Below are positions 15,030 through 33,052 of a stretch of DNA of 64,000 bases, one piece after another. How positions within the stretch are numbered: the first letter of the stretch is position 1; the number at the start of each line of letters is the position of its first letter. Both the position numbers and the translations under genes were made by a program. This DNA comes from a virus: IMG/VR virus record IMGVR_UViG_3300050160_000070. The stretch is one strand, 5' to 3'. A model generated the notes under the pieces. It was not told the origin of the DNA and did no database searches. It saw nothing but the letters and a program-made list of their open reading frames with translations.

Positions 15030-15763
15030 TTAGTTTTATGCAACACATCACGCAGATACATTTCCACAGCAATGCGTGACGCTTCGATTCTTAAAGCATC
15101 GACTTCAGATTTGGTTGGATTGGTGGTAAGCCCGAACGTCAACATACCAACAAACCGTCCGTAAAACGGCGGAATAGCAATCCGACAAACAACCGGATAT
15201 TTCTCACTTAATGACGGAAAAAGACGATTGTACAAAGTGTCTTGATACCTTGTACAATCAAACTCGTTGTTTAGTACGGCAACCATCTGTTGTGTGTTTT
15301 TTGGGTCATAGTCAAACATGGCCTGCGGGAGAACGGATGACAATTGTTGCGAGATTTCAGACGATGTTGTTTCGTCGTCAATGTACCAGTACCTGGGGGT
15401 TTTCTTGTTCCGCTTGAGATCAACTTCAGACACTATGGCTATACCAACCAGATTGTTCTGGCGAATGAAATCATTGATAGTCTTTTTAGACTCAGCAGAC
15501 ACGGACCATGGTGCGATTTCGTCTGGCTGTGAGATGGTACTAATAGCAGCGTCAAACAACCGATCTCGGTTTTCAAACGCGACTAACGCAACAGACAATA
15601 GAACACCAAACAACACAACTGTTAGCATGCGTTGCAGAGTCAATTTGTCCGTAATGTATTGAAGATATTCAAACCAATCAAGTAAAGATTTTGGTTCGTT
15701 CGGAACGCTTCCTTTAGTTGGTTCAGTATCGTCAGCAATAAGGGTTTTGTTGGGATGAAACAT
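15026..15763 (-). CDS. N-terminally anchored membrane protein, paralog of 14340-15029 (T4 holin T-like architecture)
   Basis: TM helix then ..AVLNNEFDC..CRIAIPPFYGRFVG..; the holin assignment is inference. Confidence 0.7.
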   Translation of the reverse strand: MFHPNKTLIADDTEPTKGSVPNEPKSLLDWFEYLQYITDKLTLQRMLTVVLFGVLLSVALVAFENRDRLFDAAISTISQPDEIAPWSVSAESKKTINDFIRQNNLVGIAIVSEVDLKRNKKTPRYWYIDDETTSSEISQQLSSVLPQAMFDYDPKNTQQMVAVLNNEFDCTRYQDTLYNRLFPSLSEKYPVVCRIAIPPFYGRFVGMLTFGLTTNPTKSEVDALRIEASRIAVEMYLRDVLHKTK

Positions 15764-15773
15764 TGGAGGTACT

Positions 15774-16646
15774 TCACTTGTTGAGAGTCACCTCTGCCCA
15801 CTTCGGATGGCCCCACTGTTGTAGAGTCTTTTGATTCGATTGCACGCATGTTAAGAGACTGTCTACTGCTGGTTTGGGAACATCGCCGGCAGCGATGATG
15901 GAGGATTGTACATTTCTGATTATGATGTGCTGTTCCAACCATGGGTACGTACCAGCGGAGATTGTAGCAGATTGATATTCTGTGTCTAAGCGTTTGTCGT
16001 TAAGTGGGAGCAGCTCTGCGTATTGTTTCACAACCGTCCCAAGTTCGGTGAGTATGGGTATGGGGGCACCACCAACAATCACCACGCCGTCAATATTTCC
16101 GGCCAGAACAGCTATAATTGATTCTTCTGTGGGTCGCTCAACACTTAGCCACCTAGCGTTGATCAGCGTATCAATTCGGTGTGCGGTGTGCCACACACCT
16201 GCACCTGGCACGCCAATTGAAATACGTTTACCCTTAAGGTCTTTTAGAGAACGAATGTTTGATCGTTTATTGACCAGCAAGTACACATCGTCGTGATACA
16301 ACGGCGCAACTGTTTGCACTAACCCTGCTAGTCCTCTGCCCTTAAAAGCATATGCCATTGTATCGTTTTGCACAAAGGCAAAACGATACCCAGTCAATAA
16401 CACTGGGGGTTGAACCAATTGCGTGATGTTGTCAAAAGAGCCCTGAGTCGGTATAATTTGAATATCTAGGTGTGAACATGCCCTTTGGATATCCTCACCG
16501 ATGCGCGTATTTGTATTTTTCAGTGAACCAGTAAAAATCGTGTACTTTGGTCGAGCCTGCACCGATCCAACACCACTGGCTGCTGCAGTAGTGGCAATAC
16601 ACAGACATGCAACGGCGACTTTGGAAATAAACGATATTAATGACAT
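15774..16646 (-). CDS. TAXI-family TRAP transporter solute-binding protein
   Basis: Signal peptide; TQGSFDNI, FAFVQND, LYHDDVYLLV, SLKDLKGKRISIGVPGAG. Confidence 0.85.
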   Translation of the reverse strand: MSLISFISKVAVACLCIATTAAASGVGSVQARPKYTIFTGSLKNTNTRIGEDIQRACSHLDIQIIPTQGSFDNITQLVQPPVLLTGYRFAFVQNDTMAYAFKGRGLAGLVQTVAPLYHDDVYLLVNKRSNIRSLKDLKGKRISIGVPGAGVWHTAHRIDTLINARWLSVERPTEESIIAVLAGNIDGVVIVGGAPIPILTELGTVVKQYAELLPLNDKRLDTEYQSATISAGTYPWLEQHIIIRNVQSSIIAAGDVPKPAVDSLLTCVQSNQKTLQQWGHPKWAEVTLNK

Positions 16647-30363: not shown

Positions 30364-30457
30364 GACTGCTGATCTCGCTTGTAGCATACAAGCGAATGCA
30401 GGTGTAGTGCACGCACCAACGCTAGGGCACCAGACTAGCCAAGCGAGATCAGCAGTC
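30364..30457 (+). ncRNA. structured 5' leader closed by an 18-bp perfect stem
   Basis: GACTGCTGATCTCGCTTG / CAAGCGAGATCAGCAGTC enclosing two hairpins. Confidence 0.55.
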
Positions 30458-30475: not shown

Positions 30476-30916
30476 GTGGAACATTTCTTTCAAGGTCTCG
30501 AGGACTGCCAGCAGTCCTTCGCTGGTGACATCACACCAATGCTGCGAGCGCAGATCGCCAGGACTCCGGTCACGGTGATGCTCCGCCATGAGACCGGCGA
30601 GCTGCGAGTGTCGTTCACCACCGCGTGGGATGAGCAGATCATCGTCGACTACGTGCCGGTTCAGTACGTGTCGAATGCGTTGCACGGCCGCTACGGCTTG
30701 CAGTTCGTCGTTGAGCTGCAGACGGAGGAGATCGACCGCGACAACGCCGTGTTCAACCCGGACGGTCTGGCCGCCCTGATGGCTGACGCAATTGACAACA
30801 TGCTGCGCCAGCGCCAGCGCCAGCGTCCGGTGAAGGGCGTGAGGAACCCACTGCTCGTCAGGATGACGGTCGGCGAGGTGAAGTACGAGACCGAGTACAT
30901 TCTGCCGGAAGTATGA
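30476..30916 (+). CDS. hypothetical protein
   Basis: GTG after CGGAG. Confidence 0.7.
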   Translation: MEHFFQGLEDCQQSFAGDITPMLRAQIARTPVTVMLRHETGELRVSFTTAWDEQIIVDYVPVQYVSNALHGRYGLQFVVELQTEEIDRDNAVFNPDGLAALMADAIDNMLRQRQRQRPVKGVRNPLLVRMTVGEVKYETEYILPEV

Positions 30917-30920
30917 GCTG

Positions 30921-30961
30921 TTGACGGCGAAGCGTAGATGAGATAAGATACGCTTCGCCGT
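30921..30961 (+). promoter_or_regulatory. hairpin promoter driving the RNA cluster
   Basis: TTGACG-17-TAAGAT; 13-bp perfect arms ACGGCGAAGCGTA/TACGCTTCGCCGT. Confidence 0.85.
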
Positions 30962-31056
30962 GTGAAGGTAGTGAAGTCTGGGGGCTGGCGTGAGAGCGCT
31001 AAGCCAGCTGGAGGTGGCGTCGGGTGTGGGCCTGCCAGCATCGTTCTTTGAAAATT

Positions 31057-31202
31057 AGTATCCTATGATCATCGCCGTCGGCGGCTGCATGTGGGCGGCA
31101 TCGCCGGCCGGTACGGATAGCACCTGATTCCATAAATGGATAGGGTGTGATTCTTGAAAGCATGTGTGGCTGTTGTCGAACGGCGATGATCATAGGATAC
31201 TA
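31057..31202 (+). ncRNA. structured RNA closed by a 23-bp perfect stem
   Basis: TAGTATCCTATGATCATCGCCGT / ACGGCGATGATCATAGGATACTA; stem extends with wobble pairs to a branched head. Confidence 0.6.
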
Positions 31203-31211
31203 GACGTAACG

Positions 31212-31401
31212 AAGATAGATTGAGTGGCACAGGATGCTTGGTTGCAACCACAATCAGGCGGATCTACGGCTAGGAAGACGGGCCCGTCAACCCAGCTGAG
31301 TCAGAGGACAAACCAACAGGCCTGGTAGCACGGAGTGGTATCCGAATATTCCAGGTGAGGTTTGGCGGCAGGCGACCGCGTTGTGCCACTCAATCTATCT
31401 T
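31212..31401 (+). ncRNA. structured RNA closed by a 20-bp perfect stem
   Basis: AAGATAGATTGAGTGGCACA / TGTGCCACTCAATCTATCTT enclosing several hairpins. Confidence 0.6.
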
Positions 31402-31411
31402 TTGAATCAGT

Positions 31412-31487
31412 GCCGGCTTAGCTCAGTTGGTAGAGCAACGCTCTTGTAAAGCGTAGGTCATCTGTTCGAGTCAGATAGCCGGCACCA
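31412..31487 (+). tRNA. trnT: tRNA-Thr (anticodon TGT)
   Basis: 76-nt cloverleaf GCCGGCT..AGCCGGC-ACCA; anticodon arm ACGCT-CTTGTAA-AGCGT. Confidence 0.97.
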
Positions 31488-31500
31488 CAGAATGCAAGAT

Positions 31501-31584
31501 CACGTCACACCGGAAAGGTCCGCCGGGGTGTGGTTCACAGGCTGGGGGCACTCAGCTGGGAGGTTCGAATCCTCTTGTGGCGTG
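31501..31584 (+). ncRNA. tRNA-like RNA with aberrant anticodon arm, no encoded CCA
   Basis: Acceptor CACGTCACA/TGTGGCGTG; D-arm CGGA-AAGG-TCCG; elongated arm with 3-nt loop GTT; T-arm GGAGG-TTCGAAT-CCTCT. Confidence 0.65.
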
Positions 31585-31691
31585 TGGCGTGTGATGGGAA
31601 ACGGTGCGCTGGAGTTTGTGCGCTCAAAGTGACGTAGTGGCAGGCGGCCGCCTGGAACCACCTCCGCCGTTCTTATTGCTTTACTGTTTAT

Positions 31692-31829
31692 GAAGGTGCC
31701 ATTGTTCGGTTCCCCGCGGTGCGTCGACGCAAAGCGGTGCAGGGCGTTGGAGTGGAGTAGTGCGCCGGAAGGCCGCCTACTTTGGCCAACTAAACAAGGC
31801 AAGTGCAAATCCTCCTGGTGGCACCTTCT
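31692..31829 (+). ncRNA. multibranch structured RNA, loosely tRNA-like
   Basis: 11-bp closing stem GAAGGTGCCAT/GTGGCACCTTC; GGAA tetraloop hairpin; T-loop-like TGCAAAT before the 3' strand. Confidence 0.45.
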
Positions 31830-31877
31830 TTTCTTTGATGTATACTCCCCTCATCGCAACTGTTCGGAGCAACCGAA

Positions 31878-32180
31878 ATGAGCCACATCCTCTCGTACAC
31901 CGAGACTCGCAGCCGCCTGATGGACCGCGTGCAGTGGGAGAAGATCGAATCGGTGATGAAGCACCTCAACTGGACGTGGGTCTTCACGAATTATGAAGTG
32001 CCGACGATCGACCAGATGAAGAGCTGTGTCGACCGCTTGTTCGACACTGTCTGGGAGAAGATGCACTCGGAAGGCAACACGGACGAGTGGTACTCGTCCT
32101 CCACTGGCGGCTTCGAAGTGCGCGCTTTCACGTTCGCCACCGGCGAAGTGGTGTACGAAGCGATCTTCAAGGTCATGTGA
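31878..32180 (+). CDS. hypothetical protein
   Basis: CGGAG SD. Confidence 0.75.
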   Translation: MSHILSYTETRSRLMDRVQWEKIESVMKHLNWTWVFTNYEVPTIDQMKSCVDRLFDTVWEKMHSEGNTDEWYSSSTGGFEVRAFTFATGEVVYEAIFKVM

Positions 32181-32847: not shown

Positions 32848-32997
32848 ATGGCGCTGACACCGAAGACCACCCGAGTCACGGTGTATGTGGATGGGGAGGT
32901 GCTCCACGAGCACCACTTCCCCATTTTCCTGCTGCCGTTCATGCGCTGGCTGTGCCGCATGCTGGGTGCGACGATGCACACGCCCTGGTACAGTTGA
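32848..32997 (+). CDS. 49-aa hypothetical protein
   Basis: Abuts previous stop; its TGA lies within the next -35. Confidence 0.55.
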   Translation: MALTPKTTRVTVYVDGEVLHEHHFPIFLLPFMRWLCRMLGATMHTPWYS

Positions 32998-33052
32998 CAA
33001 GATAGGTGGTTGGTAGTATTATCTCGTTACTGTCAACCAAACGAGGAATGCA

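Follow-up and report, generated by a model that had tools for sequence, protein, structure and literature searches.

Known Stable RNA Operons and Phage RNAs

In bacterial rrn operons, boxA is the assembly site of Nus factors, while the sequences upstream and downstream of the RNA pair into a duplex that RNase III cuts (PMC8632103); a stem of 12 bp can suffice for this enzyme (PMC8708148). The gamma-proteobacterial boxA consensus is GYTCTTTAANA, with a critical C at position 4 (bioRxiv 10.1101/091223), while a G at position 8 is a Bacillus-type feature, the B. subtilis form (PMC13753749). Phages make structured RNAs of their own: the T4 tRNA cluster encodes rnaC (139 nt) and rnaD (119 nt), the function of which is still unexplained (PMC9697503), and GOLLD (RF02032) is a large structured phage RNA tied to tRNA genes. 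What stable RNAs without a known function do in phage tRNA clusters is an old question; the layout described here suggests how such RNAs are made.

The locus lies in a stretch of 64,000 nt (the window, to which positions refer unless another record is named) of the 174,565-base IMG/VR record IMGVR_UViG_3300050160_000070, which is about half complete and comes from an uncultured XacN1-like jumbo phage, with a major capsid protein that shares 62% identity with the one of Xanthomonas jumbo phage XacN1. A second record, G001, encodes an identical capsid protein and on this ground is regarded as covering the remaining half of this phage; it carries about 50 tRNAs, GOLLD, an RNase P RNA-like gene, and a permuted tmRNA. 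Genes for tmRNA, RNase P, GOLLD, and SmpB occur in the clade, and its member G004 also encodes Ro60 (a Ro60/TROVE gene at 63535-65250).

The locus resembles a bacterial rrn leader and spacer region: it has a promoter, an untranslated leader, a boxA-like word with C4, and a predicted leader/trailer duplex around an RNA cargo and a tRNA. Unlike an rrn operon, it is phage-encoded, its cargo consists of unknown RNAs of 150-190 nt instead of rRNA, it has no boxC at the rrn spacing, and each cargo RNA has its own stem of 20-23 bp within the outer stalk. With rnaC and rnaD it shares two adjacent small structured RNAs of similar size beside a tRNA gene in a T4-like phage, but the sequences (z below 0) and folds are not similar; the T4 RNAs lack a long helix that joins their ends, and rnaC finishes in a T arm, whereas the two domains described here are sealed by stems. 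GOLLD is present in the other half of the phage, but its model finds no match at the studied locus. A limited literature search did not find the combination of boxA and a stem-sealed RNA described in phages; the operon around the two domains appears to be a phage version, not described before, of a familiar design. A preliminary description of this DNA, made from the sequence, had noticed the two domains; the boxA-like word, the enclosing stalk, and the analogues in cultured phages, all missed there, are new.

A Gene-Free Stretch with a Promoter and a boxA-Like Word

The preliminary description placed the domains in a stretch of about 900 nt without a credible + strand gene, and this is borne out: independent assemblies call no gene in 30916-31878 (a gene-free stretch of 961 nt), + strand ORFs inside it reach at most 46 codons, and the flanking genes are small ORFs without known function. 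A sigma-70-type promoter (TTGACG, 17 nt, TAAGAT) is found on the + strand at 30921-30949, followed by a G-rich untranslated leader from the inferred start site at 30957 to 31055. In the relative L198, where the ORF upstream of the promoter is 71% identical, the two hexamers are conserved, as are the 20 bases at the start of the transcript, after which its contig stops. The promoter had been described as a “hairpin promoter”. The 13-bp inverted repeat that flanks it (30924-30936/30949-30961) has two mismatches in L198; most of it precedes the probable start of transcription, so that it is a feature of the DNA, one of many DNA hairpins that stand at promoters across this phage. Strand-asymmetric folding (see below), the absence of genes, and the conservation of the promoter and 5′ end in L198 together support the reading that non-coding RNAs are transcribed from the promoter at 30921.

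Searches with the neighboring proteins led to no genome other than this phage and a single relative from ENA, the contig of which stops 20 nt into the transcript; in G004, the closest complete relative, the syntenic site holds protein genes only and no such operon. Near-identical copies of the locus carry no variation, except for one short JGI contig (L010) that lacks 39 nt (31361-31399), which takes away the 3′ arm of the second stem. A short T-run is present at both ends of this gap, which may be a real deletion or an artefact of assembly or reverse transcription.

Directly 5′ of the first domain stands a boxA-like antitermination word, GTTCTTTGAAAA (31043-31054, + strand). It is the sole match in the window at no more than one mismatch, a setting at which 1.6 matches are expected by chance. 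The word agrees with the gamma-proteobacterial consensus GYTCTTTAANA at 10 of 11 positions, including the critical C4; at position 8 it carries the G of the B. subtilis form. Does such a word mark stable RNA genes elsewhere in these phages? Among uncultured relatives, four of seven matches to a relaxed pattern, tuned on this same set, lie no more than 450 nt upstream of tRNAs (0.19 expected; 0/8 in the control), and in a fresh set five of ten distinct matches head runs of tRNAs or non-coding RNAs. The word is predicted to be 0.64-0.76 unpaired before the 3′ arm of the stalk is made and to be covered afterwards (0.30).

Two Stem-Sealed Domains

Domain 1 (31056-31202, + strand, 147 nt) is predicted to fold as 23 perfect base pairs, a 4-nt bulge, a 15-bp wobble-rich helix, and a three-way head, much as proposed earlier, when wobble pairs were said to extend the stem to a branched head. 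The 23 pairs are all Watson-Crick (31056-31078/31180-31202), so that the perfect pairing claimed for this stem stands, with its 5′ arm starting one base to the left of the position first given (31057). Domain 2 (31212-31401, + strand, 190 nt) is closed by 20 perfect pairs, 22 with wobbles, around four arms; its all Watson-Crick stem (31212-31231/31382-31401) is exactly as first described, and the domain is predicted to form a five-way junction. The two stems are the longest and second-longest perfect inverted repeats of the 174,565-base record, with analytic chance expectations of 6e-7 (stem 1) and 4e-5 (stem 2) per genome, in line with the view that perfect stems of 20-23 bp are improbable by chance.

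Both domains fold far better than shuffled sequences (z -7.85 for domain 1 and -7.28 for domain 2; 0/200 shuffles as good in each case). With the perfect stems removed, the cores give z -2.59 on the + strand and -0.40 on the - strand for domain 1, and -2.16 and -1.25, respectively, for domain 2. The inner 15-bp helix of domain 1 includes seven wobble pairs and can form on the + strand only; this is a signature of RNA and fixes the strand as +. Domain 1 could also form a GA-N5-GAAA hairpin at 31146-31162, at a cost of about 9 kcal/mol (-72.7 vs. -81.5 for the lowest-energy fold); such a hairpin occurs anywhere in 0.55% of shuffles of the domain 1 core, for a pattern defined post hoc. In domain 2, GGTT-GC-AACC and GACGG-GC-CCGTC had been described as hairpins with 2-nt loops, a fold that is impossible; these are 12-nt self-complementary words, of which the one at 31239 is predicted within another helix (31236-31244/31251-31259) and the one at 31277 as 4 bp with a 4-nt loop.

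The domains do not stand alone. In the fold of the whole operon, an interrupted outer stalk of 33 bp (31010-31051/31624-31665) is predicted to surround domain 1, domain 2, a tRNA-Thr, and a tRNA mimic. Its 5′ arm (8+7+8+4+6 bp) has pair probabilities of 0.93-1.0 and a duplex energy of -53 kcal/mol; the 3′ arm, also on the + strand, was identified by fold, duplex, and shuffle tests and ranks first of 1864 windows as a non-self partner. A duplex shuffle test on the whole leader was uninformative (63/403), and a folding-gain test was used instead: 0/630 leader shuffles equal the stalk against a short trailer and 4/180 against a long one, figures that are optimistic because the arm was picked after the fold was seen. 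The tRNA-Thr(UGU), with CCA encoded, occupies 31412-31487 on the + strand, and the tRNA mimic follows on the same strand (31501-31584), with a 9-bp acceptor-like stem, an intact T arm, and no normal anticodon arm in the fold; its T-arm region matches a tRNA-like RNA of an operon in phage CM1 (z 9.6). Beyond the stalk lies a third structured domain (31692-31828, + strand; z -2.32), sealed by 11 bp, with a U-rich run after it; the operon probably ends here. An 11-nt stretch of the tRNA mimic, near 31550, has its complement near 31291 in domain 2, perhaps by chance.

Searches for Known Families and Homologs

An Rfam scan that included the 6S, Y/YrlA, and ribozyme models finds tRNA only, at the gathering score and up to E=10, and neither domain matches a family; the first description had likewise recognized none. 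Against 50,697 phage records, blastn returns tRNA or chance matches only, and exact patterns of the domains give no matches, or chance matches, in viral and metagenome contigs. Single-sequence covariance models run over 1.6 Mb and 29 related jumbo-phage records detect no homolog of either domain, their sole match being a tRNA-Asn with a long acceptor stem. Across phage, viral, metagenome, and prokaryote collections, blastn, nhmmer, patterns, and covariance models identify no homolog of domain 1 or 2; judged by sequence, both are orphan structured RNAs.

Of the roles suggested earlier, a promoter mimic of the 6S type finds no positive support: neither domain matches 6S in Rfam, and neither is a rod with a central bubble, domain 1 being a rod with a branched head and domain 2 a five-way junction. 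Nor does anything positive speak for a tRNA mimic in domains 1 and 2, neither of which has a T-loop, or for a protein sponge; a CsrA/RsmA sponge in particular is rejected on GGA counts (3 and 5) that are ordinary and mostly outside hairpin loops. Other candidates were tried and set aside: (i) Y RNA/YrlA, with no Rfam match to E=10 and no T-loop word in either domain (Ro60 is not found in the four incomplete records of this phage and is present in G004); (ii) a retron msr-msd, with no reverse transcriptase in the five records G000-G004 and only small ORFs of unknown function as neighbors; (iii) the self-cleaving ribozymes of Rfam, with no match to E=10 and no complete hammerhead core seen in the sequence; (iv) a MITE, the element being single-copy, with arms not repeated in GTDB and no target duplication at domain 2; and (v) a tmRNA-like tag frame, none having a tag-like end when inspected by eye, while the permuted tmRNA of the phage lies elsewhere. 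A search for antisense targets in the phage yielded chance 13-mers only.

Analogous RNAs in Related Phages

If the domains belong to no known family, do related phages have anything comparable? In three cultured phages, XacN1, Xoo-sp13, and CM1, a promoter, a short leader, a boxA, a stem-sealed RNA, and tRNA-like RNAs follow each other in this order, with a permuted tmRNA further along in two of the three. The first RNA (L217:1526-1722 in XacN1, L218:1532-1748 in Xoo-sp13, and L219:1538-1709 in CM1) is 170-215 nt long, begins directly after boxA, and is closed by a stem of 22-27 bp; it has no Rfam match in any of the three and no annotation in Xoo-sp13. In CM1, two sealed RNAs are adjacent, further ones being found at L219:1711-1877 and 2260-2439, and in XacN1 the leader pairs with downstream trailers. 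The closing stem covaries: over 22 pairs in three sequences, 61/66 cells are paired (17-29 in slid controls), with nine double changes, a result that concerns the stem of these three RNAs and not domains 1 and 2. The outer half of this stem is conserved in sequence. All three RNAs finish with a 3-bp hairpin carrying a GA-N-GAAA loop.

Domain 1 shares with these RNAs the clade, the position after boxA, the long closing stem, and the tRNA-like RNAs downstream; it alone of the two domains shows the layout of boxA, long stem, and GA-N-GAAA hairpin, a pattern defined post hoc. The hairpin is near the 3′ strand of the stem in the cultured phages, whereas that of domain 1 lies 17 nt from the perfect stem. 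A sequence-only profile built from the three members does not find domain 1 and shows no homology to domain 1 or 2, and the RNAs of the cultured phages count as analogues of domain 1, not as proven homologs. A wider search for leaders of this kind gave eight chance matches and one unrelated promoter-boxA-RNA unit. On an apparently unrelated viral contig (L231, near 8430), a promoter, the same boxA word, next bases of the XacN1 type, and a structured gene-free stretch occur together.

Long closing stems also recur outside this layout. G001 and G004 share a homologous RNA of 190-200 nt that lies 2-6 nt upstream of a tRNA (L143:2548-2745, - strand, in G001; L140:4010-4212, + strand, in G004) and is closed by a stem of 21-22 bp whose sequence differs between the two; its exact pattern is confined to these two in IMG/VR, and the G001 copy has no Rfam match. 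Words in its core recall what we take to be conserved regions of RNase P, in permuted order, and the core may hold a pseudoknot. Leader and trailer extend the acceptor stem of tRNA-Asn or tRNA-His to 17-28 bp in G001 (1950-2045, - strand), G004 (32929-33042 and 341911-342023, + strand), G013 (15506-15600, - strand), and G021 (352870-352963, - strand), and unannotated RNAs are closed by stems of 17-31 bp at G021 311530-311839, G009 173388-173566, G015 15871-16081, and G004 545-684. Together with the covarying stems of the cultured phages and of G001/G004, the extended tRNA stems indicate that long end-to-end helices are a recurring design, covarying in two families.

A Possible Nus-Dependent Operon with Processing Stalks

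How would such an operon be expressed? The reading favored here, to which we give an even chance, is that the locus is an rrn-style stable RNA operon antiterminated by Nus factors, in which the stems serve as RNase III-type processing stalks that release the RNAs. From the sequence, the folds, the gene-free context, the layout shared with other phages, and the stem covariation of the relatives, we infer transcription, Nus loading, and cleavage as follows. Host sigma-70 polymerase would start near 30957; the boxA word would load host NusB/NusE and other Nus factors, and the resulting complex would keep Rho away from 0.9 kb of RNA that is not translated. Each cargo RNA would fold onto its long closing helix, with the leader/trailer stalk closing the set. 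A host RNase III-type double-strand nuclease would then cut the stalk and the 20-23-bp stems, and RNase P would trim tRNA-Thr, freeing the cores on a shorter closing helix; after the cut, the wobble helix of domain 1 would remain, as would roughly half of the domain 2 stem. The enzyme would come from the host, since no RNase III gene was found in the phage records searched.

Release by RNase III had already been suggested for the two domains and is plausible; the layout of boxA and stalk strengthens it by analogy, and the predicted helices (23, 20, and, interrupted, 33 bp) reach the length of an RNase III substrate, at least about 12 bp. Several points count against the operon: neither domain has a homolog, the model built on the cultured phages misses domain 1, the syntenic site of G004 is without an operon, the G at position 8 of boxA is Bacillus-type, and the stalk was picked after the fold was seen. 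As to function, the released cores might, as a tentative guess, be protein-binding decoys or scaffolds that help the large tRNA/tmRNA/RNase P set of the phage survive in the host. A broader and somewhat more doubtful proposal is that XacN1-like jumbo phages have mini rRNA-style operons that use host Nus factors and RNase III to make undescribed stem-sealed RNAs, and that domain 1 and the RNA of XacN1, Xoo-sp13, and CM1 form one new class, with a conserved GA-N-GAAA and a distinct biochemical role in taking over the host or countering its defences. The layout and the covarying stem are shared by three cultured phages that have laboratory hosts, so that their transcription, need for Nus factors, processing, and function can be tested directly. 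For finding new phage RNAs, a boxA word with a long closing stem after it also offers a simple search rule.

But are the stems cut at all? The same operon could instead be processed at the A/U-rich single-stranded linkers on either side of the domains, by RNase E and RNase P as in tRNA clusters, leaving the long stems as mature ends; the perfect helices would then shield the RNAs from exonucleases or be their functional part, for example as a double-stranded RNA decoy. This possibility, which we rate at about half the probability of cut stems, has more in its favor than the linkers. The long acceptor-stem extensions of the tRNA-Asn/tRNA-His genes of the clade could be protective rather than cut, and the sequence conservation in the outer half of the stem in the cultured phages fits a helix that is bound and retained. 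Unbroken helices of 20-23 bp, however, are longer than RNase III needs at minimum and would likely be cleaved wherever the host has the enzyme.

It is unlikely that the 655 nt between 31010 and 31665 act as a single large RNA of several domains in which the tRNA is embedded, similar to GOLLD and possibly oligomerising through self-complementary words. The nested fold with its high pair probabilities would suit such an RNA, as would the GOLLD gene in the other half of the phage and the four self-complementary words of 8-12 nt in domain 2 (p ~0.007 vs. shuffles). However, no GOLLD or ROOL match appears to E=10, loop-loop complementarity of more than 4 nt is absent within domains 1 and 2, the RNAs of XacN1, Xoo-sp13, and CM1 are not enriched in self-complementary words outside the stem, and the cargo varies between phages, which suggests modules.

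Still less probable is an origin of the perfect repeats at the DNA level, whether as miniature transposon ends or as imperfect repeats that template switching made perfect, without selection for a function as RNA. Domain 1 starts and finishes with TA, both outer stems are purely Watson-Crick, the phage is rich in promoter DNA hairpins, and a similar 18-bp stem at 30364 is not retained in L198, all of which would fit a DNA element; yet the domains are single-copy in the record, no target duplication is found at domain 2, and among 185,579 prokaryote genomes (GTDB) the stem 1 arm is absent and the stem 2 arm has two unpartnered matches, the number that chance predicts. That the cores fold on the + strand only and that the analogous stems of relatives covary also argues against it. 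It is least probable, by a little, that one or both domains are strongly diverged versions of known RNAs (6S, Y/YrlA, retron msr-msd, self-cleaving ribozyme, or tmRNA fragment). The overlapping sizes of these classes would fit, as would the tmRNA, RNase P, GOLLD, and SmpB of the clade and the Ro60 of G004. Against this stand the lack of Rfam matches to E=10, of a reverse transcriptase in five records, of Ro60 in the records available for this phage, and of any T-loop, tag frame, or complete hammerhead core seen in the sequence.

The 18-bp repeat is the third-longest perfect inverted repeat of the record and lies 600 bases upstream of the domains; it seals a 94-nt cloverleaf (30364-30457; z -7.1) located between a promoter-like site and an ORF at 30476, and L198 retains parts of the cloverleaf interior but not the perfect stem.
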